A stretch of 53,273 nt of DNA from a virus (IMGVR_UViG_3300043464_002177); one strand, 5' to 3'; shown: positions 6,570 through 16,389, counted from the first letter of the stretch. Program-made: numbers and translations. Notes: a model not told the origin generated them from the letters alone.

Positions 6570-7112
6570 TTACTTTTTGTTAAAAAATACTTTGTTTATT
6601 AAAGACTCACAAGTCTTTTTAATTGCTGAAGAAAGTGCTTGTTGATTTATTTTATCACTTCCCTCATCAGTTATTAATGTTGATGTTGAAATCTCAGAAC
6701 TAGATTCTTCTGCAATAGCGTCTTTTATTTTTTTACCCGATTTATCTGTTAACGTACCCTTCATTGTTACTAAAGTCTCCTCAACATCGGAATGAAAAAC
6801 GGATATATTTCTTTTAGTTCTATTCACATCAAAATACATGATCTCTGAACTAAAAACTAAATCTGCTGATTCTTTATCTTCAACAATGTTGAATCCTTTT
6901 TCCTGAAGAATTTCCTCAAAGATGTTTTTACAACCAAAAGCCAAATTTCGATTGTTCGCTAACTTACCAATTTTGATTTTGTTCTCTACACCTGATATAT
7001 AAACTGATTTAGGATCTTCGATCGGATTTACTATATATGAGTATAATCCAAAGAACCCAAAAACAACTAATAACGGTAATAGAGACACGTTTAGTGTTTT
7101 ATTTCTTGCCAT
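6570..7112 (-). CDS. membrane-anchored periplasmic protein (CsgG/LptE-like alpha-beta fold, tentative)
   Basis: N-terminal TM segment then ..FEEILQEKGFNIV..ADL....I pattern; start moved to ATG at 7112 (MARNK) just after a TATTTAT motif. Confidence 0.55.
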   Translation of the reverse strand: MARNKTLNVSLLPLLVVFGFFGLYSYIVNPIEDPKSVYISGVENKIKIGKLANNRNLAFGCKNIFEEILQEKGFNIVEDKESADLVFSSEIMYFDVNRTKRNISVFHSDVEETLVTMKGTLTDKSGKKIKDAIAEESSSEISTSTLITDEGSDKINQQALSSAIKKTCESLINKVFFNKK

Positions 7113-7216
7113 ATTGATAAATATCACTAAGGCAACTACTAGTACACAACCTGCCCGATTTTTATATTATTTTATATTAATTTTTTATTTTTCTTGATTT
7201 TTAGAATACTTATTAT

Positions 7217-7224
7217 TATCTTTG
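7217..7224 (+). promoter_or_regulatory. Bacteroidota-type -7 promoter element (TATCTTTG) for leader 1 / tRNA array 1
   Basis: Matches TAnnTTTG consensus, with TTG upstream. Confidence 0.7.
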
Positions 7225-7253
7225 TTAAAGATTTAAAATTTAAAAAGAATTCA

Positions 7254-7352
7254 ATGAGACAACAAAAACATACAATGTCATTTATTATCTGCTCAAAATG
7301 GGCGGATGAGCGTGCTATGTCCGATAGTCTCGAAGATACTGATGTGGGTTAA
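7254..7352 (+). CDS. leader peptide of tRNA array 1 (32 aa, MRQQKHTMSFIICSKWADERAMSDSLEDTDVG)
   Basis: Short ORF between promoter and terminator; codons 8-24 all read by array-1 tRNAs. Confidence 0.8.
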   Translation: MRQQKHTMSFIICSKWADERAMSDSLEDTDVG

Positions 7353-7376
7353 ATTAGTTTAACTTAAAATATTAGA

Positions 7377-7410
7377 AAACCTCGGGACAAAATCTCGGGG
7401 TTTTTTGTTT
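7377..7410 (+). terminator. intrinsic terminator / attenuator upstream of tRNA array 1
   Basis: AAAACCTCGGGA-caaaa-TCTCGGGGTTTT stem followed by U-tract. Confidence 0.8.
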
Positions 7411-7412
7411 TT

Positions 7413-7482
7413 GGGCCGGATGTCAATGGCAGACCACCTGATTTGCAATCAGAGTGAATGGGTTCGATTCCCAACGTGTCCA
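7413..7482 (+). tRNA. trnA: tRNA-Ala(UGC), degenerate acceptor stem
   Basis: G3:U70 and A73, loop TT-TGC-AA, T arm ATGGG-TTCGATT-CCCAA; two mismatches in the acceptor stem. Confidence 0.65.
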
Positions 7483-7487
7483 CATAT

Positions 7488-7560
7488 TCTTAGGTAGCTC
7501 AATGGTGAGAGCACCCGCCTGATACGCGGAAGGTTGATAGTTCGAATCTATCTCTAAGAA
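7488..7560 (+). tRNA. trnI: tRNA-Ile(GAU)
   Basis: Cloverleaf; anticodon loop CT-GAT-AC. Confidence 0.9.
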
Positions 7561-7565
7561 CATAA

Positions 7566-7638
7566 GGAGATGAAGCTAACTTAGTAGAAGCGGAGGACTG
7601 AAAATCCTCAGGAATTGGAGCGTAACCAATCATCTCCA
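7566..7638 (+). tRNA. trnF: tRNA-Phe(GAA), atypical T loop
   Basis: GGAGATG/CATCTCC acceptor; loop CT-GAA-AA; T loop AGCGTAA. Confidence 0.85.
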
Positions 7639-7642
7639 CAAT

Positions 7643-7716
7643 GATCTCGTAGCTCAATTGGTTAGAGCACTACACTTTTAATGTAGGGGTTCTGCGTTCG
7701 AGTCGCAGCGGGGTCA
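7643..7716 (+). tRNA. trnK: tRNA-Lys(UUU)
   Basis: Cloverleaf; loop CT-TTT-AA. Confidence 0.92.
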
Positions 7717-7722
7717 CATTAC

Positions 7723-7793
7723 ATGGGTGTGGTGCAATGGTAGCATTCCGGTCTCCAAAACCGTCGATGGGAGTTCGAATCTCTCCACCCGTG
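7723..7793 (+). tRNA. trnW: tRNA-Trp(CCA)
   Basis: Cloverleaf; loop CT-CCA-AA; G73. Confidence 0.9.
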
Positions 7794-7807
7794 CTAAAAA
7801 TAAAATT

Positions 7808-8062
7808 ATGGATAATGACAACGTATTAAACAGATTAGTACCAAGATTAAAAAAAATAGGAATAGAGATTGAAATGTCTGGAAATATCCCTTGGATTTAT
7901 CTTGATAAAGTTAATGGGAATAGAGTAAAAAAAGAAGATTATTTCTGTGGCAATCACGGTTTTACAATTGCGTTTTATCCCATTAAACCTGATCAAAAAA
8001 TGGAACTAACAGATATAAAAGAGGTCTTTAGAATAATAAGGAAATATAAAACGGTCTCATAG
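7808..8062 (+). CDS. hypothetical phage protein inside tRNA array
   Basis: ATG at 7808 after A-rich leader (the track start 7727 lies inside tRNA-Trp); stop overlaps tRNA-Arg. Confidence 0.75.
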   Translation: MDNDNVLNRLVPRLKKIGIEIEMSGNIPWIYLDKVNGNRVKKEDYFCGNHGFTIAFYPIKPDQKMELTDIKEVFRIIRKYKTVS

Positions 8063-8123
8063 TTTAATGGAAAAACGTCTCGCTACGGACGAGATAATTG
8101 GGGTTCGAATCCCTGTGAGACCT
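8053..8123 (+). tRNA. trnR: tRNA-Arg(ACG)
   Basis: GGTCTCA/TGAGACC acceptor; loop CT-ACG-GA. Confidence 0.9.
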
Positions 8124-8183
8124 CTGTTCACAAAAACTTATTGTTCACGGTTCGTGAACAGCGAACAAATGTGAACAAAATAA

Positions 8184-8254
8184 GTCAGGTTGGCCGAGTG
8201 GTTAGGCTGAGGTCTGCAAAACCTCCCACATTGGTTCGAATCCAATACTTGACT
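8184..8254 (+). tRNA. trnC: tRNA-Cys(GCA)
   Basis: Loop CT-GCA-AA; U73. Confidence 0.92.
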
Positions 8255-8256
8255 CT

Positions 8257-8333
8257 GTGATTGATGTTCGTATGGTAGAACACTAGCTTGTGGCGCTAGA
8301 ATAGAGCGAGTTCGAATCTCGTCAATCACCCCA
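8257..8333 (+). tRNA. trnH: tRNA-His(GUG)
   Basis: Loop TT-GTG-GC; C73; encoded CCA; T rather than G at -1. Confidence 0.9.
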
Positions 8334-8334
8334 T

Positions 8335-8403
8335 TGTGGGGAGGTTAGGTAACCCGTTTGGTCTCATAAGCCAGATATCCAGGTTCGATTCCTGGCCCCG
8401 CAA
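8335..8403 (+). tRNA. trnM: tRNA(CAU), probable elongator Met with shortened D arm
   Basis: TGTGGGG/CCCCGCA acceptor; loop CT-CAT-AA; D loop only ~4 nt. Confidence 0.7.
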
Positions 8404-8435
8404 CAAATAGATTTGAAATATTAAAAATAATTTCT

Positions 8436-8443
8436 TATCTTTG
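8436..8443 (+). promoter_or_regulatory. internal Bacteroidota-type promoter (TATCTTTG) upstream of initiator tRNA
   Basis: TAnnTTTG with TTTG at 8412-8415. Confidence 0.7.
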
Positions 8444-8453
8444 TTAAAGAAAT

Positions 8454-8525
8454 CGCGAGATAGAGCAGCGGTAGCTCGGAAGGCTCATAACCTTTAGGTC
8501 GGGGGTTCGATTCCCTCTCTCGCAA
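8454..8525 (+). tRNA. trnfM: initiator tRNA-fMet(CAU)
   Basis: CGCGAGA..TCTCGCA with C1:A72 mismatch; loop CT-CAT-AA. Confidence 0.85.
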
Positions 8526-8543
8526 CTAAAACTTAATAATACT

Positions 8544-8672
8544 ATGGCGAAAGCACCTAGAACATCGAAAAGAGTTGCAAAAAAAGCTAGTAAAGCACTT
8601 AAAAGTGGTAGCACTAGTAAAACAACAAAAACTTTAGCTGGTTCAGCTTTACGTCAGCGTAGAACTAAGTAA
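8544..8672 (+). CDS. small very basic protein (42 aa, MAKAPRTSKRVAKKASKALKSGSTSKTTKTLAGSALRQRRTK)
   Basis: Manual translation; A-rich upstream; K/R/S/A-rich. Confidence 0.7.
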   Translation: MAKAPRTSKRVAKKASKALKSGSTSKTTKTLAGSALRQRRTK

Positions 8673-8677
8673 AAAAA

Positions 8678-8862
8678 TACAGGTGACGACGGAGGTGGAA
8701 CCCCTCTGTCTATAAATCTCAACACCCGCCTTGATTCGCGGTATTATAGCGGTGAGAGTAGAGTTACTACAAGTCGGGAGTAATTACCCCAATAACAAAA
8801 ATGTAACCACCAATGTAGAAATATGTTGGTTATGATGTACAAAAGGGTACAAAAAACCTGTA
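8678..8862 (+). ncRNA. candidate multi-stem structured RNA
   Basis: Closing TACAGGT/ACCTGTA helix enclosing GACGGAGG/CCTCTGTC, TCTCA/TGAGA, TAACCA/TGGTTA and TGTAC/GTACA stems; no ORF. Confidence 0.5.
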
Positions 8863-8947
8863 AATTATTGAGACTAACTCAACGAGGACTTTGTCAACCA
8901 GAGCATGACTCGGATGGTGCAATTTAAGGTGAGTTAGAATCAAACAC

Positions 8948-9021
8948 GGATTGTTGGTGAAGTTGGTTATCATGCTACCCTGTCACGGTAGAGTTCACGG
9001 GTTCGAGTCCCGTACAGTCCG
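8948..9021 (+). tRNA. trnD: tRNA-Asp(GUC)
   Basis: Loop CT-GTC-AC; G73. Confidence 0.92.
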
Positions 9022-9029
9022 CATTTATT

Positions 9030-9116
9030 GGAGGCTTGCCAGAGTGGTTGAATGGAACGGTCTTGAAAACCGTCATACTGGAAACGGTATCTGGGGTTCG
9101 AATCCCTGAGCCTCCG
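9030..9116 (+). tRNA. trnS: tRNA-Ser(UGA)
   Basis: Long variable arm; loop CT-TGA-AA; G73. Confidence 0.93.
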
Positions 9117-9121
9117 CACTT

Positions 9122-9193
9122 GCTCGGTTCGACTAGTGGTTAGGTCACCACCCTTTCACGGTGGTTGCACGGGTTCGAATCCCGTACCGAGTA
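9122..9193 (+). tRNA. trnE: tRNA-Glu(UUC)
   Basis: Loop CT-TTC-AC. Confidence 0.92.
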
Positions 9194-9271
9194 CAATATT
9201 TTTTTATATCAAGATATTGATTTACAATATTTTATTCTGTATATTTATCATATTATTAATATTTATAATAT

Positions 9272-9574
9272 ATGATAGATAAAATCACATTATCGTTAAT
9301 GTTATTTTTTAACACATTAACATCATCTATCGACCCAAGTCTTTCCGATGAAAGAAAGTCAGTTAATCAAATAAAAAAAGAGATTAAGTCTCTTGAAAGA
9401 AAGATTGAATGGGTTGAAGTAACAGATGAGAATTACGCTAGCAGGGCCGTCAAAACCAAAGAAATCACGGACGAGATTACCAAATTGAATGGTAAAATTG
9501 TAAAGATTGAGAAGGTAGCAATTTTAAAAGAGAAATGGGCTAAGGAAGATTCCTTGTCCAAATCAAAAAAATGA
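9272..9574 (+). CDS. hypothetical coiled-coil protein with N-terminal signal-like segment
   Basis: ORF track; two TATTTAT motifs upstream. Confidence 0.75.
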   Translation: MIDKITLSLMLFFNTLTSSIDPSLSDERKSVNQIKKEIKSLERKIEWVEVTDENYASRAVKTKEITDEITKLNGKIVKIEKVAILKEKWAKEDSLSKSKK

Positions 9575-10020
9575 AAAAAATTTTTTTAGTGCTAACGTTA
9601 CTTTTGGGAGTGGAAGTCGTAGCAAATGGACAAGAGTGGTTTATAACCGCCACTCGAAAAGGTGGTCCATCAGATGGTTATATAACAGGTGCTTTTATGA
9701 AAAAAGGTTGGGGATTCTATGCGGGTCTTCCATATGGTGAATTGAGTAATCAAAATGGTGGAATCGTAATTCCTCCTGGCGTCAATACCAAAACAGGAAA
9801 CGTATCAGATAACATGAAGTTCGGTGTCCTTAGACAAGTAAAAGAGGACAAGGCGATTGTTGGATTTGGATTACAACCAACAATTGGTGGGAACAAACCA
9901 AATTTTCTTATAATGTACAATCCACTTAGACCAAGTAGTGTTATAAATCTATGGACAATTGGTAATGTTGTTGGTGATGATTTAACATTAGGACTTGGAT
10001 TATCATATAAAATAAAATAA
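9571..10020 (+). CDS. secreted, possibly small outer-membrane beta-barrel protein
   Basis: Signal peptide; amphipathic strands, C-terminal GLGLSYKIK. Confidence 0.6.
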   Translation: MKKIFLVLTLLLGVEVVANGQEWFITATRKGGPSDGYITGAFMKKGWGFYAGLPYGELSNQNGGIVIPPGVNTKTGNVSDNMKFGVLRQVKEDKAIVGFGLQPTIGGNKPNFLIMYNPLRPSSVINLWTIGNVVGDDLTLGLGLSYKIK

Positions 10021-10045
10021 TTTAGTTAACTATTGATAGTTTTCG

Positions 10046-10053
10046 TATATTTG
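10046..10053 (+). promoter_or_regulatory. Bacteroidota-type promoter (TATATTTG) for leader 2 / tRNA array 2
   Basis: TAnnTTTG 17 nt before the leader ATG. Confidence 0.7.
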
Positions 10054-10070
10054 CATATACTTATTAAACG

Positions 10071-10178
10071 ATGAAGAATATAAATAACATATTAACGAGT
10101 ACAAGACCCCTTAACAATGGTAATGGGTATGGTGTGCAACCGTTAAATTACTTATGTTCGGATATTAATAGAGAATAA
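10071..10178 (+). CDS. leader peptide of tRNA array 2 (35 aa, MKNINNILTSTRPLNNGNGYGVQPLNYLCSDINRE)
   Basis: Short ORF between promoter and terminator; codons 3-28 all read by array-2 tRNAs. Confidence 0.85.
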   Translation: MKNINNILTSTRPLNNGNGYGVQPLNYLCSDINRE

Positions 10179-10201
10179 TAAAATCTTAAACTTATATCAA
10201 G

Positions 10202-10235
10202 ACCCGAACAAACTAAAAAATGTTCGGGTTTTTTT
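10202..10235 (+). terminator. intrinsic terminator / attenuator upstream of tRNA array 2
   Basis: ACCCGAACA-loop-TGTTCGGGT plus U-tract; competing TGTTCGG inside the leader ORF. Confidence 0.85.
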
Positions 10236-10293
10236 ATGTTATTTTTTATTCTTATATTTGAATTAGTTCTTTGACATATTGGAAAATCGTAAT

Positions 10294-10379
10294 GCCTGGG
10301 TGATGAAATCGGTATACATGCAAGACTTAAAATCTTGTGGGCCGTAAGGCCCGTGCGGGTTCGACCCCCGCCCCAGGTA
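10294..10379 (+). tRNA. trnL: tRNA-Leu(UAA)
   Basis: Long variable arm; loop CT-TAA-AA. Confidence 0.93.
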
Positions 10380-10384
10380 CAATT

Positions 10385-10457
10385 GGTCTGGTAGCTCAGT
10401 GGATAGAGCAACTGCCTTCTAAGCAGTAGGTCATTGGTTCGAATCCAATCCGGATCA
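10385..10457 (+). tRNA. trnR: tRNA-Arg(UCU)
   Basis: Loop CT-TCT-AA. Confidence 0.93.
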
Positions 10458-10459
10458 CT

Positions 10460-10597
10460 AAGATAATGGTCTGATGTTATTATGATTGTCGACAAATCAT
10501 GGTAACTATTAAACAGACAGCACCCTCTGCCGATGCATCGTAAAACTATTACTAAGCAGTTAAGATTGGAACGAGACGGGTATTCCAACATTATCTT
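10460..10597 (+). ncRNA. candidate multi-branch structured RNA between tRNAs
   Basis: AAGATAATG/CATTATCTT closing helix with GTCTG/CAGAC, CTGC/GCAG and TTGGAA/TTCCAA internal stems. Confidence 0.5.
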
Positions 10598-10602
10598 TAT
10601 TT

Positions 10603-10676
10603 TGGGAATTAGCGTAGTCCGGTATCGCGCTTGGTTTGGGACCAAGAGGCCGTAGGTTCGAATCCTGCATTCCCAA
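10603..10676 (+). tRNA. trnP: tRNA-Pro(UGG)
   Basis: Loop TT-TGG-GA. Confidence 0.92.
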
Positions 10677-10681
10677 CAAAA

Positions 10682-10753
10682 GCTGATGTAGCTCAACGGC
10701 AGAGCAATTGACTGTTAATCAATAGGTTGAGATATCGTAATTCTCCATCAGCG
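10682..10753 (+). tRNA. trnN: tRNA-Asn(GUU), atypical T loop
   Basis: Loop CT-GTT-AA; T loop ATCGTAA; G73. Confidence 0.85.
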
Positions 10754-10760
10754 CAACAAT

Positions 10761-10841
10761 GGCCGAGTGGTGAAATGGGAGACACGCTAGTTTTAGGCAC
10801 TAGTGTCGAAAGACGTGAGAGTTCGAATCTCTCCTTGGTCA
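10761..10841 (+). tRNA. trnL: tRNA-Leu(UAG)
   Basis: Loop TT-TAG-GC; variable arm. Confidence 0.92.
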
Positions 10842-10846
10842 CAAAA

Positions 10847-10926
10847 TGGGGTATCGCATAGCGGCAATTGCGGCTGACTGTAAATCAGCTCCTTAGGGTT
10901 CGGCGGTTCGAGTCCGTCTACCCCAA
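10847..10926 (+). tRNA. trnY: tRNA-Tyr(GUA)
   Basis: Loop CT-GTA-AA; variable arm. Confidence 0.92.
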
Positions 10927-10940
10927 CAAATAAAAATATT

Positions 10941-11060
10941 ATGAACAGAGAAGAACATTTAATTAAAACATTTCCAACTAAAGAAGGGAAAACATATATT
11001 CAATCTTTAGATGAGCATAATTCAAAAAAAGGAAAAAAAATGAAAAAAGAAAAAAAATAA
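10941..11060 (+). CDS. small lysine-rich hypothetical protein (39 aa)
   Basis: Manual translation MNREEHLIKTFPTKEGKTYIQSLDEHNSKKGKKMKKEKK. Confidence 0.5.
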   Translation: MNREEHLIKTFPTKEGKTYIQSLDEHNSKKGKKMKKEKK

Positions 11061-11068
11061 AAATATAT

Positions 11069-11175
11069 GCCGGAGTGGCGGAAAGAGGTATGTACAGCCT
11101 TGAGACGTCCCCGAACTAGGAAGGGTGGTGTATCCGAAATGGACATCGTGTGAGTAACCAATCTCTCCTCCGGCA
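11069..11175 (+). ncRNA. tRNA-Leu-like RNA with D-loop insertion and non-canonical anticodon and T loops
   Basis: Perfect GCCGGAG/CTCCGGC acceptor + A73, Leu-type GCGGAA..AGACG D arm, extra hairpin, no TTCG motif. Confidence 0.6.
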
Positions 11176-11182
11176 CCGCATT

Positions 11183-11259
11183 GGACTTGTAGCTCAGTTG
11201 GTTAGAGCACTTCACTCATAATGAATAGGTCCCTGGTTCGAGCCCAGGCTGGTCCACCA
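11183..11259 (+). tRNA. trnI: tRNA(CAU), probable Ile2 (lysidine-modified, reads AUA)
   Basis: GGACTTG acceptor, A73, loop CT-CAT-AA, CCA encoded; Ile2 identity is inferred (ATA codons occur in leader 2). Confidence 0.75.
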
Positions 11260-11262
11260 AAT

Positions 11263-11335
11263 AGAAGATTAGCTCAGATGGAAGAGCGCTTGCCTTACAT
11301 GCAAGATGTCACTGGTTCGATCCCGGTATCTTCTA
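11263..11335 (+). tRNA. trnV: tRNA-Val(UAC)
   Basis: Loop CT-TAC-AT. Confidence 0.92.
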
Positions 11336-11341
11336 CAATAA

Positions 11342-11413
11342 GCCTCTTAAGCATTGCAGGCGATGCGCATGACTTGTAATCATGATAACTCGGTTCGATT
11401 CCGGGCGGAGGCT
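11342..11413 (+). tRNA. trnT: tRNA-Thr(UGU)
   Basis: Loop CT-TGT-AA. Confidence 0.9.
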
Positions 11414-11418
11414 CACAA

Positions 11419-11491
11419 GCGAGTATAGTATAATGGCTCATTATGCCTTCCTTCCAAGTAGGATATGTCAGTTCGATTCTGACTACTCGCT
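11419..11491 (+). tRNA. trnG: tRNA-Gly(UCC)
   Basis: GCGAGTA/TACTCGC acceptor, U73; loop CT-TCC-AA. Confidence 0.92.
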
Positions 11492-11570
11492 CAATTCAAG
11501 TACCCGTATCGCACAGTAGGGTTAAATAAGATGGGAACTCTGTTGCGAGAGCCAGAATGCTTGAAATTAT

Positions 11571-11641
11571 TGTCCTTTGGTGTAACGGTAGCACAGGTGT
11601 TTTTGGTGCATCTAGTTGGGGTTCGAATCCCTGAGGGACAA
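11571..11641 (+). tRNA. trnQ: tRNA-Gln(UUG)
   Basis: Loop TT-TTG-GT. Confidence 0.9.
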
Positions 11642-11645
11642 CAAT

Positions 11646-11731
11646 GGAGGGTTACCCAAGTTGGTGAAGGGGGCAGTTTGCTAAACTGTTAGGTCATTCG
11701 TGGCGCGAGGGTTCGAGCCCCTCACTCTCCG
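11646..11731 (+). tRNA. trnS: tRNA-Ser(GCU)
   Basis: Loop TT-GCT-AA; long variable arm; G73. Confidence 0.93.
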
Positions 11732-11736
11732 CATAT

Positions 11737-11881
11737 TGTAGTGTGACGAAATTTGGCAAACGTACCGTCCTGTCTCGGCGGTGTGGAGCATCTGATAAAC
11801 GTAGGATAATGGGTTGACCACAAAGCGCGCAATGTCCTATGGCTAAAGACCACTTGGATGGTTCGAATCCTCCCACTACAG
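11737..11881 (+). ncRNA. tRNA-like RNA with ~74-nt variable arm (GUC in anticodon position)
   Basis: TGTAGTG/CACTACA acceptor, class-II-type D arm, CCGTC/GGCGG stem with loop CTGTCTC, TTCGAAT T loop, long hairpin insertion 11782-11855. Confidence 0.7.
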
Positions 11882-11910
11882 CTAAAATAATTATATTAAA
11901 ATGAAATGAA

Positions 11911-12372
11911 ATGAAACAATTTAAAACTCTCTATGGAACTAATATTCCTGATTTGATTGGGTATGTAAGAGAATACATCTCAACAAGAGAGAACGTAGAA
12001 ATTCTCATTGGGTCTGACTCACAATGTTACGGGCATAAAAAAACTATCTATGGTGTTGTAATTGCATTATATACACCAGGGAAAGGTGCTCATGTGTTGT
12101 GTAATCGTGAAACTACCCCGATGGAATATAATACCCCATCTAGATTGTTAAATGAAGTTTGGAGATCCATTGAAATTGCTGAATGGATGAAAGAAAATGG
12201 TTTACCTAAAGCCACATGGATTGATATTGATCTTAACCCAGATCCAAAATTTAAATCAAACTCAGTTTTAAGACAAGCAGTTGGATTAGTTGAAGGTATG
12301 GGTTATAAGGTAAGGTATAAACATTTAGGAGCATTAACAACATATGCTGCAAACCATTTAGTTAGAATTTAA
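11911..12372 (+). CDS. RNase H-like YkuK/DUF458 family protein
   Basis: Motifs IGSDSQ, RLLNEVWRS, IDIDLN recalled as typical of the family. Confidence 0.7.
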   Translation: MKQFKTLYGTNIPDLIGYVREYISTRENVEILIGSDSQCYGHKKTIYGVVIALYTPGKGAHVLCNRETTPMEYNTPSRLLNEVWRSIEIAEWMKENGLPKATWIDIDLNPDPKFKSNSVLRQAVGLVEGMGYKVRYKHLGALTTYAANHLVRI

Positions 12373-12420
12373 AAAAAAAATATTTTTTTACAAATTCTTC
12401 TTTTTTTGAAATATATTATC

Positions 12421-12428
12421 TATCTTTG
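12421..12428 (+). promoter_or_regulatory. Bacteroidota-type promoter (TATCTTTG) upstream of the large ncRNA
   Basis: TAnnTTTG with TTTG ~-33; followed by boxA-like AGTTCTTTGAA at 12447. Confidence 0.7.
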
Positions 12429-12464
12429 TAAAAGAGTTAAGGAAATAGTTCTTTGAATTAAAAA

Positions 12465-13268
12465 TATTGGCCGCCTATGGTCGATTAAAATAAACCATGA
12501 AAGTGGGATAAAGTGAATCTGAATTAGTTGTTTGGGTTTGCGGTTTCAGCAATGGAACTTGAGTAGGCAAGCGGGATATCATTAAGCCGTAAGTACTGAG
12601 GGTGACACTGTAGGGAAAGTGGTTTGGTGACTGAGCGATACCGGTCGTTTGGTTGAGGTGGGAACACCAATAAGAATAACTCGTAGAATTGTTGTGAGAA
12701 ATATGACCTCCAATCATATTATTGCGGGATTCAATACAATGGGAATCTTAAAACCGAAAGGTATGGTTGTGTACAGGTGGTGCTGTTACAATCCTTGATT
12801 TAAATCTACCAAGGTTTTTATCTCGAAGGGGTCCAGAAGTGTGGAGGCAGGGATGTCTCAGAGGGTAGTTTAGTATCGTGTCGTCCAAAAGATGGCATGG
12901 CTGGCGGCGAGCCACTACCTTCCAGATCGGTAACTAAAATCATTTTGTTAATTCAGGTTTAACAACTTATAAACAAAAGGAAAAGTGCTCGTCAGTCATT
13001 AGAGACAGGTGACTACATAGTCGTGAGGGGTTCACGGCCACAAAGGGTCCCAAGCCCAATGTGAGTTTCCAGAAAGTTCTCTAGTCCCGCAAGGACTAAT
13101 CGGGGTGGCAACCTCGAAGAGTAATAAGTAAGGTGAGAGTATCTAATGACTTAAGGATTGGTTAATCTAATTGACCGTCACTGGTTGGTACAGTTCAAAA
13201 GACTGTGGATATGAGAGGAAACAATAATCTTTCTAAAGTCAACTACTAAAACTTGTAATCTCAGAGTT
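12465..13268 (+). ncRNA. large structured ncRNA, GOLLD-like
   Basis: ~800 nt with no credible sense ORF, GC-rich, many GNRA/CAAAA-capped hairpins, long-range pairing 12596-12632 with 13237-13264, own promoter and terminator, next to a phage tRNA array; family assignment not computed. Confidence 0.65.
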
Positions 13269-13343
13269 TTTATTTTTTTAGTTTAGAAAAACTAAATGGT
13301 GGAAGAGACCTCACAAAAATATTAACCGTGCGGCCCCGAATTG

Positions 13344-13372
13344 AGTCAGAAGAAATTCTGACTTTTTTTTTG
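13344..13372 (+). terminator. intrinsic terminator after large ncRNA
   Basis: AGTCAGAA-gaaa-TTCTGACT + long U-tract. Confidence 0.85.
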
Positions 13373-13403
13373 TTTTTAAAAAAAAATTAAGTATATTATG
13401 TGA

Positions 13404-14150
13404 ATGAGAATCATTTGCATATCAGATACACATAGTCTTCACCCAATGATGGGTTATGATCTACCTGAAGGTGATGTTTTAATCCATTCGGGTGATTGTA
13501 CAAATAAAGGTCAACGTCAAGATGTTGAGAATTTTGTTCATTGGTTTATGGATCAAAAATATGATACAAAGATCTTTGTTGCTGGTAATCACGATTTTGC
13601 ATTTGAAGAACATAGATACCCACATCACAAAGGAGATTACGATTGGTATTATAATTTAATGGATAAAGAAACATTGTCACAATCCGATGTAGTTTATTTA
13701 GAAGATAACCAATGTATAATTGACTCACCAGAATTCTCCAGACCAATAAAGTTTTGGGGTAGTCCATGGCAACCAGAATTTTATAATTGGGCATTTAATT
13801 TACCAAGACTAGGTGAAGATCTTCAAAAGTATTGGTCAATGATTCCTGAAGATACTGATGTATTAATAACACATGGGCCGCCTCATGGATGTAGAGATTT
13901 TGTTAGTAATTGGAGACAAGGAGACATGAACGTTGGTTGTGAATTACTTGCGTTCCATGTGGAACGTGTAAAACCATTATTACATGTATTTGGTCATATT
14001 CACGGGGCATATGGAGGAATGTATAAAAATGATACATTATTTGTTAATGCTGCCATCTGTACTGAACAATATATTCCATCAAATAAACCTATCATCGTTG
14101 AATTAAAAGAATACGATGGCGAAATTGTAGCAACTTATGTCGAAGAATAA
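13404..14150 (+). CDS. calcineurin-like metallophosphoesterase
   Basis: DTH, GD, GNHD, THGPP, GHIH motifs. Confidence 0.92.
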   Translation: MRIICISDTHSLHPMMGYDLPEGDVLIHSGDCTNKGQRQDVENFVHWFMDQKYDTKIFVAGNHDFAFEEHRYPHHKGDYDWYYNLMDKETLSQSDVVYLEDNQCIIDSPEFSRPIKFWGSPWQPEFYNWAFNLPRLGEDLQKYWSMIPEDTDVLITHGPPHGCRDFVSNWRQGDMNVGCELLAFHVERVKPLLHVFGHIHGAYGGMYKNDTLFVNAAICTEQYIPSNKPIIVELKEYDGEIVATYVEE

Positions 14151-14820
14151 CGAACCAATAAGTGTTGTTATACCAACACGAAAAATTGATGATACATACT
14201 TAAAGCATGTTGAGAAAATGTTCTCTCATCCTAGAACTGAAATTTTAATTTATGAGAATGATGGTAGCGAACCATTAGCCAAAATTTATAATGATGGATT
14301 AAAAGATGCTAAGAATGATATTATTGTTTTCATGCATGATGATTTAATTCTTGAAACAAAAAATATTACACCTAAAGTCATTAGGTTATTTGATAAAAAC
14401 CCTCAATATGGTATTATTGGTTTAGCCGGTACAGATAACCTTCTTAGTGGAATGTGGTGGCAAGATAGATCATCAATGTATGGTATTGTTGGTCATGAAC
14501 ACGAAGGTAAGCGTCATGTCAATCATTACTCAAAAGGTGATTACAGTGAAAACTTAAAAGAGGTGATCGTTGTTGATGGGTTATTTATGATGATTCATAG
14601 AGAAAGATTAAAACATACTTTCAATGAACAGTTTGAAGGGTTTCATTTTTATGATCTACCAATATGTGTTGAAAATCATTTAAATAGTGTTAAAATTGGT
14701 GTGACAACCAAAATTAGAGTTACACATAAATCGGTCGGTATGGTTAATAAAAAATGGGAGAAGAATAAATTATTCTTTGAAGCATTATATGATAAGAATT
14801 TCCCTTTGAAAATCTCTTAA
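14137..14820 (+). CDS. glycosyltransferase family 2-like protein
   Basis: YNDG, VFMHDD, VDGLF, FHFYDL motifs. Confidence 0.8.
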   Translation: MSKNNEPISVVIPTRKIDDTYLKHVEKMFSHPRTEILIYENDGSEPLAKIYNDGLKDAKNDIIVFMHDDLILETKNITPKVIRLFDKNPQYGIIGLAGTDNLLSGMWWQDRSSMYGIVGHEHEGKRHVNHYSKGDYSENLKEVIVVDGLFMMIHRERLKHTFNEQFEGFHFYDLPICVENHLNSVKIGVTTKIRVTHKSVGMVNKKWEKNKLFFEALYDKNFPLKIS

Positions 14821-14827
14821 CTATTTA

Positions 14828-14835
14828 TACCTTTG
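14828..14835 (+). promoter_or_regulatory. Bacteroidota-type promoter (TACCTTTG) of tmRNA
   Basis: TAnnTTTG followed by boxA-like AGTTCTTTAAA. Confidence 0.65.
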
Positions 14836-14855
14836 TAATAGTTCTTTAAAATAAT

Positions 14856-15255
14856 GGGGGTGTCTGGTATTGATTGGCGTTGATATGGTAAATGGGCACG
14901 TAGTCGGATGTCATCTACGACTTTAATCCACGGTGGTAAAATTTAAACGGCAACGTTTATAACAACATGGAAGCTTGCGGCTTGATCGCAACTTCTAACG
15001 TAGCAGTAGCCTAAGGCGAAACTATATCGGGTCGACTGGCATATAACCTAGGAACAGAAGCCTTCAAGGTGTAATACCGCCTCAGAGTGTTGGAGAATGG
15101 TCTGATTGTCTCTTTAAAATCTAGTCAGAAACAGGTTTGTTGTGTAGCTGTGTATGAAACCAACTATTTGTCAGTTGAGAACCAATTGAATAAACGTGTA
15201 GTCCATTTATGATATGGCGAGCAAGACACGGGTTCGAATCCCGTCACCTCCACCA
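14856..15255 (+). ncRNA. ssrA: tmRNA; tag (A)GNVYNNMEACGLIATSNVAVA at 14949-15014
   Basis: GGGGGTG..ATTGA 5' end, T arm GGTTCGAATCC, CACCTCC-A-CCA 3' end with G3:U70, internal tag ORF ending in hydrophobic AVA-stop. Confidence 0.93.
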
Positions 15256-15256
15256 T

Positions 15257-15283
15257 AAACCCATCTTCGGATGGGTTTTTTTA
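15257..15283 (+). terminator. intrinsic terminator after tmRNA
   Basis: AAACCCATC-ttcg-GATGGGTTT + U-tract. Confidence 0.88.
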
Positions 15284-15423
15284 TTTGGTACCTCTATAAA
15301 CGAACAAAAGGTCCGAAGACCCTTTGCCGAGATTTAGAATACCTCCTTTCGTTTTTTTTCTATTATCATTTGATGGCGACCAAACCAATCAAACTCTGAT
15401 AATAAATATCTTTTAAACAACAA

Positions 15424-16389
15424 TTATTTAAATTCTTGTAGGTATTTTCTTAATATTTTTTTTCTTGATTCTTGCATAATAGAAGAATCTGATCCTGGAA
15501 CTTCAAATGGATCTTTTACACTGGTAGCTTGATTTGTTGAACTGTTACTTGCTGCTGACCCATCATTTAATTTTGGCCAAGTATCTTTACCAACAGCACC
15601 ATCATCTTCTAATCCGTTAGCTGCCTGAAAAGCCATAACCATTCTTTTTGTTCTGTTACCAAAAATACCGTCTGGTTTATCATTTTTACTTACGTGAATA
15701 AATCCTTTAGCAATTAATAATTCTTGAATCTTTGTAACAATATCACCTCTCATTCCCACTTTAACAAATTTACCTGCCGCTAAATCATCACCAGTTAAAT
15801 TTGTATCAGTAATTGTTGTGGTGTTAGACGATGAAGATGATGAAGATGATGAGGCTGAACTAGTAGTCCATTTATTAGTTTTAGATGAATAAGTACTACC
15901 ATCATCTAATTTAATAGTATATGCATCTGTTCCGTCACAAGACCATGAGCCATTCTTTTTACTAAAACTACTATGAAATCTATTATTAGAAAAAAATGCC
16001 CAGTAAGCTGGTTTTTTGGTATCATCATCAACAGCATCATATCTTACATAATTATGACTTTTAACAAATTTAAGATCAGTGTCTTTTAAAAGGCAATCAA
16101 AAATACCACCAGCCGTATTAGATGAACCACCGCAATATGTTAATTTTTTTGCCCAAGTAAGATCGCATGCGAATTTTTCAAAAAATGCTTTTTCGGTAAA
16201 TGGCGGTTCAAAAATACCCATATTAGTGATATTGGTAAAAAGGGCTTTAACAGACGCCTCGTCTTTAAAATTCGCTGCAGTCCAATCAGGATATCCTTTT
16301 GGATATTTTTGAGCAAATTTAACAACCTCCTTATTTTTGGTTGCAAATCCTAAAACATCATTGAATAATTTTTTTCTTTTATCTTCCAT
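15424..16389 (-). CDS. peptidoglycan-binding domain protein
   Basis: PG_binding_1-like VTKIQELL..DGIFG..TKRMVMAFQ..NGLEDDGAVGKDTW; Ser/Thr-rich linker. Confidence 0.8.
   Translation of the reverse strand: MEDKRKKLFNDVLGFATKNKEVVKFAQKYPKGYPDWTAANFKDEASVKALFTNITNMGIFEPPFTEKAFFEKFACDLTWAKKLTYCGGSSNTAGGIFDCLLKDTDLKFVKSHNYVRYDAVDDDTKKPAYWAFFSNNRFHSSFSKKNGSWSCDGTDAYTIKLDDGSTYSSKTNKWTTSSASSSSSSSSSNTTTITDTNLTGDDLAAGKFVKVGMRGDIVTKIQELLIAKGFIHVSKNDKPDGIFGNRTKRMVMAFQAANGLEDDGAVGKDTWPKLNDGSAASNSSTNQATSVKDPFEVPGSDSSIMQESRKKILRKYLQEFK

Follow-up and report, generated by a model that had tools for sequence, protein, structure and literature searches.

A viral DNA sequence of 53,273 nucleotides (IMGVR_UViG_3300043464_002177; this whole stretch is here called the window) contains a tRNA island that was initially annotated as the smallest complete tRNA set, able to replace the entire host tRNA pool. 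The locus raises the question of whether such an island could carry translation by itself or whether it supplements the tRNAs of the host. Twenty-five canonical, co-oriented tRNA genes were located on the plus strand at positions 7413 to 11732, in two arrays of 13 (7413 to 9194) and 12 (10294 to 11732) genes (Table 1), confirming both the anticodons and the split given in the initial annotation. ARAGORN with default settings found 24 of these, and all 25 scored above the gathering score of Rfam RF00005 (29 bits, the cutoff used for canonical tRNAs), ranging from 30.1 to 72.5 bits, with tRNA-Ala(UGC) and the first CAU tRNA (class A; 33.3 bits) as the marginal scorers. No further canonical tRNA was detected in the 53-kb window by ARAGORN or by Rfam in gathering mode, nor at positions 7000 to 15500 by Rfam in E-value mode. 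CCA is not encoded in 23 of the 25 genes. With 25 genes in 4,320 bases (5.8 per kb), the island is a viral tRNA gene cluster as previously defined (a minimum of 15 tRNA genes, with no fewer than 2 per kb; PMC6409571), and the clustering of these genes within 4.3 kb is far beyond chance.

Table 1. Features of the tRNA island and its neighborhood in the window
Feature	Coordinates	Strand	Basis or remark
tRNA-Ala(UGC), aberrant	7413..7483	+	Rfam 30.1 bits; ARAGORN only at relaxed -ps90
tRNA-Ile(GAU)	7488..7561	+	ARAGORN; Rfam 66.6 bits
tRNA-Phe(GAA), unusual T loop AGCGUAA	7566..7639	+	ARAGORN; Rfam 48.4 bits
tRNA-Lys(UUU)	7643..7717	+	ARAGORN; Rfam 66 bits
tRNA-Trp(CCA)	7723..7794	+	ARAGORN; Rfam 56.9 bits
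tRNA-Arg(ACG), sole A34 tRNA	8053..8124	+	ARAGORN; Rfam 61.8 bits
tRNA-Cys(GCA), U73	8184..8255	+	ARAGORN; Rfam 56.6 bits
tRNA-His(GUG), encoded C73-CCA, T at -1	8257..8333	+	ARAGORN; Rfam 45 bits
tRNA(CAU) class A, probable elongator Met	8335..8404	+	ARAGORN; Rfam 33.3 bits
tRNA(CAU) class B, initiator	8454..8526	+	ARAGORN; Rfam 63.6 bits
tRNA-Asp(GUC), G73	8948..9022	+	ARAGORN; Rfam 61.8 bits
tRNA-Ser(UGA), class II	9030..9117	+	ARAGORN; Rfam 51.5 bits
tRNA-Glu(UUC), end of array 1	9122..9194	+	ARAGORN; Rfam 62.9 bits
Inter-array spacer	9195..10293	+	Two ORFs (9272-9574, 9571-10020), no known family
tRNA-Leu(UAA), class II, start of array 2	10294..10380	+	ARAGORN; Rfam 53.7 bits
tRNA-Arg(UCU)	10385..10458	+	ARAGORN; Rfam 72.5 bits
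tRNA-Pro(UGG)	10603..10677	+	ARAGORN; Rfam 67.4 bits
tRNA-Asn(GUU), unusual T loop	10682..10754	+	ARAGORN; Rfam 57.9 bits
tRNA-Leu(UAG), class II	10761..10842	+	ARAGORN; Rfam 50.7 bits
tRNA-Tyr(GUA), class II as in bacteria	10847..10927	+	ARAGORN; Rfam 52.6 bits
tRNA(CAU) class C, probable tRNA-Ile2, encoded ACCA	11183..11259	+	ARAGORN; Rfam 64.1 bits
tRNA-Val(UAC)	11263..11336	+	ARAGORN; Rfam 63.5 bits
tRNA-Thr(UGU)	11342..11414	+	ARAGORN; Rfam 41.3 bits
tRNA-Gly(UCC), U73, sole Gly tRNA of the window	11419..11492	+	ARAGORN; Rfam 58.1 bits
tRNA-Gln(UUG)	11571..11642	+	ARAGORN; Rfam 50.6 bits
tRNA-Ser(GCU), class II, last canonical tRNA	11646..11732	+	ARAGORN; Rfam 53.3 bits
26th tRNA-shaped gene	11737..11881	+	Sequence; T-loop motif match
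PF04308 RNase H-like protein	11911..12372	+	Conserved island neighbor
GOLLD RNA	12861..13267	+	Rfam RF02032, 321.6 bits; 416-position model matched in full
Phage tmRNA	14856..15255	+	ARAGORN; Rfam RF00023, 91.2 bits

PHROG matches place the window in a phage context, and its source is probably a large uncultured T4-like freshwater (lake) phage. Using the PF04308 RNase H-like protein as bait, we found 80 relatives in IMG/VR on contigs of up to 334 kb, one of which has terminal repeats and is 100% complete according to CheckV, and the Gp23 capsid family was detected in four of the five relatives searched. Close relatives keep the gene order of the island, and two of the related loci (L002 and L003) have a different 2.8-kb insert in place of the spacer between the arrays. 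The T4 tRNA region consists of eight tRNAs in two subclusters together with the stable RNAs C and D, and T4 repairs tRNA by means of Rnl1 and Pnkp. The island resembles that region in its T4-like lineage (Gp23 family in relatives), its two subclusters, the non-decoding tRNA-like RNA at its end, and the Rnl1-family ligase, which is found here in relatives. However, the eight T4 tRNAs provide only partial coverage, whereas the 25 genes described here provide full coverage and have GOLLD and a tmRNA attached.

Clustered tRNA genes and complete tRNA sets have previously been described in phages (PMC6409571, PMC5852040, PMC7162821), and the island is a clean example of this habit. Like the clusters surveyed by Morgado and Vicente (2019; PMC6409571), that of the Xanthomonas jumbo phage XacN1 (56 tRNAs, all 20 amino acids; PMC5852040), and those of huge phages (up to 67 tRNAs, with tmRNAs; PMC7162821), it is dense, lies on one strand, covers all 20 amino acids, belongs to a large virulent-type myovirus-like phage, and has a tmRNA alongside. 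The sets of XacN1 and the huge phages are redundant, whereas this island lacks duplicate isoacceptors and equals the 25-species minimum. GOLLD RNAs often occur near phage or prophage tRNA islands (Rfam RF02032; Kretsch et al., doi 10.1101/2024.12.08.627333), as is the case here, where the last tRNA is followed by GOLLD after ~1.1 kb, but the match extends over 407 nt (the full 416-position Rfam model) versus >800 nt in many members.

The anticodon list is that of the minimum set of 25 species, including the initiator, which was deduced under maximal wobble and superwobble by Alkatib et al. (2012; PMC3499367), and the earlier designation of the island as the theoretical superwobble minimum was thus correct. 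On paper, 25 is the smallest set able to read the genetic code. One tRNA is present per codon box, as proposed, and the U34 proposed for the family boxes was found in seven of the eight (Leu UAG, Val UAC, Ser UGA, Pro UGG, Thr UGU, Ala UGC, and Gly UCC), the exception being the CGN box with A34 (ACG). In the split boxes, U34 is used for purine-ending and G34 for pyrimidine-ending codons, and the Trp anticodon is CCA. After inosine formation, an A34 tRNA-Arg(ACG) reads CGU, CGC, and CGA. The plastid-type minimal set (PMC3499367) has the same 25 anticodon classes, with U34 in the family boxes, ACG for CGN, and an initiator, an elongator Met, and a CAU-type AUA reader. Plastids, however, actually keep ~30 tRNAs, 25 being an experimentally inferred minimum (PMC3499367), and the phage set, unlike that of a plastid, exists alongside a complete pool of host tRNAs, so that superwobble is not forced.

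The three CAU tRNAs represent three classes, A, B, and C, that are conserved across related phages. Bacterial initiators are recognized by a 1x72 mismatch, A11:U24, and G:C pairs at 29-31:39-41. Class B is clearly the initiator; it was scored as such on the basis of C1xA72, A11:U24, G30:C40, and G31:C39, but has A29:U41 and hence two of the three G:C pairs. Positions 30:40 and 31:39 are G:C in 17 of 17 class B sequences of the phage family, and the gene is 77% identical to E. coli metZ. Class A combines an initiator-type acceptor, in which U1:A72 is paired, with U31.G39 and a short D arm. Within this class, 1:72 is paired in 26 of 26 sequences and U31.G39 is present in 25 of 26, and the 28:42 and 29:41 pairs of the anticodon stem covary in a compensatory manner; class A is probably an initiator-derived elongator Met. 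Class C has G1:C72, C4:G69, and U5.G68. Within this class, C4:G69 was found in 35 of 38 sequences and C5:G68 in 20 of 38, along with compensatory anticodon-stem changes, while in classes A and B the pair is reversed (G4:C69) in 42 of 43 sequences. C4:G69 is critical for the TilS enzymes of E. coli and Burkholderia cenocepacia, the second element being 5:68 or 3:70 (PMC11947777), and class C has both C4:G69 and a second element, although these determinants may not be those of the host of this phage. Its acceptor stem thus points to a probable tRNA-Ile2, which would read AUA after lysidine formation; counting against this assignment, class C as a whole resembles E. coli metT (83%) more than ileX (75%). 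Because the Ile2 and Met roles were assigned from acceptor-stem marks only, the isotypes in the initial annotation are firm for the initiator and probable for the other two, and the three tRNAs would most likely serve as initiator, AUA-reading Ile2, and elongator Met.

Immediately after the second array, the 26th tRNA-shaped gene, which is conserved and was not included in the initial count, has an acceptor and a T arm, a CUGUCUC loop in which GUC occupies the anticodon position and is followed by U37, and a ~74-nt extra arm, and its acceptor and anticodon stems covary through compensatory changes in loci L019 and L023. It has no RF00005 match at E <= 1 and thus falls outside the canonical cutoff. 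A word-index lookup also placed in this genome, ~62 kb outside the window, a sequence in which 20 of the 20 short words of a relative's tRNA-Arg(CCG) recur. The notion of exactly one nonredundant set therefore holds only for the canonical tRNAs inside the window, and the genome has candidates for further isoacceptors in this CCG look-alike and in the GUC-loop gene.

In a comparison of 44 distinct related islands, all with 22 or more tRNAs, the 23 core anticodons were each present in 34 to 44, and the commonest extras were Gly-GCC (29 islands) and Ile-UAU (10 islands); single isotypes were missing from some relatives within the fetched locus. The islands with Gly-GCC include L002, whose bait protein is identical to that of the window, where Gly-GCC is absent. 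The tRNAs of the window and L002 are mostly 100% identical, but those for Asn and Gly-UCC are only 71% and 70% identical; conversely, the tRNAs of L018 are mostly 65 to 90% identical to those of the window, but its tRNA-Asn is 100% identical. The one-per-box core thus recurs in this T4-like phage family while single tRNA genes are swapped, a slot conservation with allele exchange that we did not find described in the papers on phage tRNA clusters consulted here. Since related islands do not keep to a total of precisely 25, this number looks incidental rather than designed, and would reflect the lack here of the Gly-GCC that most relatives have and the probable location of one or more additional tRNAs (CCG) in another part of the genome.

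Codon use was counted over the 14,527 codons of the window genes. CGG, the only codon that the I34 tRNA-Arg reads badly, is absent (0 of 507 Arg codons), so the set could read every codon of these genes. AGA makes up 72% of Arg, UUA 57% of Leu, and AUA 37% of Ile codons, and the third base of family-box codons is A or U in 82% of cases (39% A, 42.6% U). The commonest family-box ending is thus NNU, which U34 reads only via U-U wobble, and the family-box NNY codons (2,492 of 14,527; 17%) could be read by the set only by U-U or U-C wobble. As it includes no G34 family-box tRNA, the set is not tuned to the commonest codons of the phage itself; GGU constitutes 57% of Gly codons, yet Gly-GCC is the tRNA missing. 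Together with the NNU preference and a tRNA-His for which G-1 is not encoded, the detection of TilS in none and of a CCA-adding enzyme in one of the five relatives searched indicates that dependence on the host remains.

The explanation that we favor, and consider probable, is that of a one-decoder-per-box island of a T4-like phage that aids the reading of AT-rich codons and insures late translation. The set would supply decoders for the AT-rich phage codons AUA, AGA, UUA, and NNA, and may protect late translation from host tRNA loss or cleavage; phage tRNAs can rescue infection from tRNA-cleaving defenses (PMC10264068, PMC11464382). The set would rely on the synthetases, CCA addition, and modification enzymes of the host, with selection presumably acting on the repertoire, so that related phages retain the core but trade single genes. 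Complete replacement, in which the host pool is destroyed and late translation depends solely on the 25 phage tRNAs, with superwobble in all family boxes, is very unlikely: the anticodons do cover all codons used in the window, the list equals the published minimum, and the family conserves the one-per-box core, but 17% of the codons are family-box NNY, Gly-GCC is missing despite the abundance of GGU and its retention by most relatives, tRNA-His has no templated G-1, CCA addition, lysidine formation, and charging would depend on the host, and no host-tRNA nuclease was identified among the window genes. It is also quite unlikely that the family maintains by selection on the repertoire a self-sufficient one-per-box set truly working by superwobble in the bacterial cytoplasm, built partly from repurposed parts (an initiator turned elongator Met, a tRNA-His without templated G-1, and a tRNA-Ala with a broken acceptor stem). 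If true, the family would show that, outside organelles, the 25-tRNA minimum can exist in nature and be stable over evolutionary time.

The known tRNA-cutting effectors include PrrC/RloC, PARIS, and retron- and Schlafen-type systems. The phage tRNAs could substitute for host tRNAs cleaved by anticodon nucleases while being insensitive to these enzymes themselves, a complete set giving blanket protection; this is unlikely in itself but does not conflict with the favored explanation, and both may hold. It agrees with the rapid turnover of single tRNA alleles between related phages and with a T4 Rnl1-type RNA ligase (PF09511, the family of the T4 tRNA repair ligase) in three of the five relatives, located ~12 kb from the island in genome G001, although no RtcB was found. 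Published cases exist (PMC10264068, PMC11464382, PMC11555353), but these involve one or a few target tRNAs and not all 25.

It is least probable that the set is partly decayed, with tRNA-Ala(UGC), CAU class A, and the G-1-less tRNA-His as nonfunctional relics and the host covering those amino acids. The low Rfam scores of the first two, the absence of single isotypes from some relatives, and the structure of tRNA-Ala (C5xU68 and G6xG67 acceptor mismatches, a 3-bp D stem, and a 4-bp T stem) would fit decay. However, G3.U70, as expected of a tRNA-Ala, is present in the window copy and in 31 of 31 distinct sequences of the family, the 49:65 pair shows a compensatory swap, and the gene is near-invariant across relatives whose bait protein is down to 82% identity; the pairing and covariation of class A argue likewise. 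Bacterial tRNA-His genes encode G-1 opposite C73, whereas the window gene has T at -1, and no Thg1 family gene was found in the five relatives searched. T at this position is shared by L014, L016, L020, L023, and L036, most other relatives having G, and the U(-1) form is thus conserved in six loci with differing tRNA bodies.

ARAGORN identified 24 tRNA genes and one tmRNA in the window, all on the plus strand, and Rfam recovered the same 24 tRNAs plus a 25th, Ala-UGC, so that the 25 tRNAs of the initial annotation, their anticodons, and their division into arrays of 13 and 12 genes were borne out. The 25 genes lie within 4.3 kb. Ala-UGC scored 30.1 bits in Rfam, where the gathering score is 29, and was reported by ARAGORN solely at a relaxed threshold; the first of three CAU tRNAs (here class A, followed by classes B and C) was weak too, at 33.3 bits, and the remaining 23 scored 41 to 72 bits. 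Only the His and CAU class C genes encode the CCA 3' end. No further canonical tRNA was detected in the 53-kb window by Rfam in gathering mode or by a T-loop motif search, nor over positions 7000 to 15500 by Rfam in E-value mode. Rfam scans of whole records of relatives were used to seek tRNAs outside the islands, and for one such gene, the CCG tRNA of G003, all 20 index words recur in the genome of the window, in a 90-nt stretch located 62 kb past the window end. This raises the tRNA count to at least 26 at the genome level, and the description of the set as exactly one nonredundant set holds only for canonical tRNAs inside the window.

Features of the tRNA island region and tRNAs outside the islands of relatives (window positions unless a locus is named; G001 to G004 are long IMG/VR records)
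Feature	Position	Observation
Terminator-like hairpin	7373-7407	Strong; 15 pairs and a T run; ends 6 nt before Ala (promoter/terminator scan)
Array 1	7413-9194	13 tRNA genes
tRNA-Ala(UGC)	7413-7482	3-bp D stem, 4-bp T stem
tRNA-Phe	7566-7639	T loop AGCGUAA, not the standard UUCRANY
tRNA-His	8257-8333	T at -1, then G1:C72, C73, encoded CCA
CAU class A	8335-8404	Initiator acceptor UGYGGGG/CCCCGCA
CAU class B	8454-8526	C1xA72, A11:U24, G30:C40, G31:C39
Spacer between arrays	9195-10293	Variable hotspot; two small ORFs
Array 2	10294-11732	12 tRNA genes
tRNA-Asn	10682-10754	T loop AUCGUAA, not the standard UUCRANY
CAU class C	11183-11259	G1:C72; standard elongator D arm
tRNA-shaped gene	11737-11881	Directly after Ser-GCU
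PF04308 RNase H-like gene	11911-12372	Adjoins island
GOLLD RNA	12861-13267	321.6 bits; 416-position Rfam model matched in full
Terminator-like hairpin	13343-13364	
tmRNA	14856-15255	ARAGORN and Rfam; ARAGORN-predicted tag ends ...ATSNVAVA
Alternative spacer insert	L002:5440-8234	2.8 kb, including a PG_binding_1 gene
G001 (324 kb, 97% complete)		26 tRNA matches; none outside island
G002 (311 kb, complete)	L132	34 tRNA matches; Met-CAU and Arg-UCU outside island
G003 (251 kb, 75% complete)	L131:1000-1090	23 tRNA matches; 91-nt class II-like tRNA-Arg(CCG) outside island
G004 (181 kb, 54% complete)	L130:1040-1113	27 tRNA matches; Ile-UAU outside, ~65 kb from island

According to Alkatib et al. (PMC3499367), the standard code can be read with as few as 25 tRNA species, one of them the initiator, when wobble is maximal and superwobble operates. 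The anticodon list of the window matches this set, in agreement with the earlier proposal that it equals the theoretical minimum. U34 is present in seven family boxes, and the CGN box is served by ACG; in the split boxes, G34 is used for pyrimidine and U34 for purine endings, Trp is read by CCA, and there are three CAU tRNAs. An ACG (inosine) tRNA reads CGG poorly under wobble rules, which fits the absence of CGG among the 507 Arg codons in the 61 ORFs of the window. Codon use in these ORFs is AT rich (AGA, 72% of Arg; UUA, 57% of Leu; and AAA, 79% of Lys codons), and family-box codons end in U (43%), A (39%), C (9%), or G (9%). The combination of U34 and G34 tRNAs covers this codon use with the fewest genes, and the set is untuned to the commonest family-box codons. 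Many large phages are known to carry dense tRNA clusters and complete sets (PMC6409571, PMC5852040, and PMC7162821), so the existence of such a set is not new. Its value lies in being a clean natural case in which the anticodon list equals an experimentally inferred minimum of 25 species; the evolution of the island by conserved slots and swapped alleles, together with three atypical tRNAs, is the more interesting by-product.

Islands with 22 or more tRNAs were retained from an ARAGORN run on all loci of relatives, giving 44 distinct ones. Each of 23 core anticodons was found in 34 to 44 of these islands, and 40 of them held two or three CAU genes. Extra genes were few: Gly-GCC in 29 of the 44 islands, Ile-UAU in 10, Lys-CUU in 5, and scattered others. 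The window island, to which that of the metagenome contig L001 is identical, was alone among the 44 in having all 25 without an extra, a duplicate, or a gap. L002 and L003, in which the RNase H-like protein is identical to that of the window, share this island, except that Gly-GCC stands between Val and Thr and the arrays are separated by a different insert. The anticodon core is conserved, and the exact count of 25 is incidental. Most tRNAs of the window are 100% identical to those of L002, the exceptions being Asn (71%), Gly-UCC (70%), and Pro (89%); compared with L018, most are 65% to 90% identical, the exceptions being Asn (100%), Lys (99%), and Leu-UAG (98%). In L019, the aberrant Ala is swapped for the canonical Ala of another lineage, and in more distant relatives the genes stand in a different order but the anticodons are the same. 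Selection appears to act on repertoire slots, not on individual genes, with the occupants being exchanged. Such conservation at the level of the repertoire could be useful to designers of reduced tRNA sets. No usable Pfam match was obtained for the small ORFs inside the island.

The atypical members, namely, an initiator-derived CAU tRNA, a His tRNA without G-1, and a mismatched Ala tRNA, depart from textbook identity rules in ways that can be tested. Ala-UGC has the mismatches C5xU68 and G6xG67. The alanyl-tRNA synthetase mark G3.U70 is present in 31 of 31 distinct sequences of its family, which are nearly invariant among relatives whose RNase H-like protein has diverged to 82% identity, and U49:A65 of the window is replaced by A49:U65 in L018 and L020. 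The gene is probably functional. The window's arrangement of the His tRNA 5' and 3' ends recurs in five relatives (L014, L016, L020, L023, and L036); in the majority of the other relatives, C73 faces a G at -1. A templated G-1 is the main bacterial histidyl-tRNA synthetase mark, and with T at this position the mark is not encoded in the window. A search of five relatives for Thg1 genes found none.

The three CAU tRNAs represent three classes conserved across the phage family. Class B, 77% identical to E. coli metZ, is the initiator, although A29:U41 leaves two of the three G:C pairs. In class A, positions 1:72 are paired in 26 of 26 distinct homologues, U31.G39 lies beside the anticodon loop in 25 of 26, and the D arm is degenerate; no BLAST match was found in E. 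coli genomes. Pairing at 1:72 affects EF-Tu use, from which we infer that class A appears to derive from an initiator copy that has become an elongator Met. Both classes carry G4:C69.

In class C, C4:G69 is present in 35 of 38 sequences, position 5:68 is C:G or U.G, and the anticodon stem covaries freely. C4:G69 is needed by the TilS of E. coli, together with 5:68, and by that of B. cenocepacia, together with 3:70; with the pair inverted to G4:C69, hardly any activity remains (PMC11947777). At the position where L072 and L074 have class C, their relatives in two distant sublineages (L084/85 and L076/77/80/81) have an Ile-UAU gene instead. Based on the TilS mark and this replacement, we consider it reasonably likely that class C is tRNA-Ile2. 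Counting against this assignment, class C is globally nearest to E. coli metT (83%), followed by ileX and ileT (75% each), and the L041 group has both Ile-UAU and class C. Whole-body similarity, for which the top-listed BLAST match in E. coli was the rRNA-operon tRNA-Ile(GAU), was set aside as a criterion between Ile2 and Met because the freely varying anticodon stem leaves it unable to decide. The "tRNA-Met" label on GenBank phage look-alikes was likewise rejected as evidence on CAU identity, since anticodon-based callers so name any CAU tRNA. AUA makes up 37% of the Ile codons in the window ORFs, so an AUA reader matters to the phage; five relatives encode no TilS, so the host would have to provide lysidine. 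The nearest GenBank matches were Bacteroidota phages (Cellulophaga and crAss-like), a weak host clue only.

Why phages carry tRNAs is debated in terms of codon supply, host shut-off, and evasion of tRNA-cleaving defenses, and the conservation of the repertoire across the family bears on this question. The initial annotation proposed that the phage can replace the whole host tRNA pool, and the set is complete on paper. However, family-box NNY codons account for 17% of all codons in the window ORFs, NNU would need U-U wobble, and GGU makes up 57% of Gly codons, yet a Gly-GCC gene is missing from the window island. We read these features as pointing to phage tRNAs that would act as supply and insurance added to the host pool; replacement is, as a hypothesis, somewhat disfavored. 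An Rnl1-type RNA ligase in three of five relatives hints that tRNA cleavage by host defenses is a pressure on the phage family, and published roles of phage tRNAs agree with such pressure (PMC10264068 and PMC11464382). RtcB was not found in the relatives searched, among which only G002 has a CCA-adding enzyme.

The phage setting is indicated by several PHROG matches in the window. Used as bait, the PF04308 protein retrieved 80 IMG/VR loci (52% to 97% identity) on contigs of up to 334 kb, including one with terminal repeats that is rated complete, and the T4 capsid family Gp23 was found in four of five relatives searched. The PF04308 gene also adjoins the island in the island-bearing relatives recovered in this way, and its product is a candidate tRNA-processing factor. 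Between it and array 2, the T-loop motif search and the sequence revealed a 26th tRNA-shaped gene. It combines an acceptor stem and a T arm with a 7-nt loop, CUGUCUC, in which GUC occupies the anticodon position; its extra arm is ~74 nt long. Compensatory changes in its acceptor and anticodon stems in L019 and L023, with an invariant loop, mark it as a real, conserved RNA gene; in some relatives there is also an insertion in the D region. The GOLLD RNA is flanked by the RNase H-like gene on one side and a metallophosphoesterase/glycosyltransferase pair on the other. GOLLD beside tRNA islands is a known association (Rfam RF02032; doi 10.1101/2024.12.08.627333). tmRNAs are already known in huge phages (PMC7162821); that of the window is conserved in relatives, with small changes in the tag.
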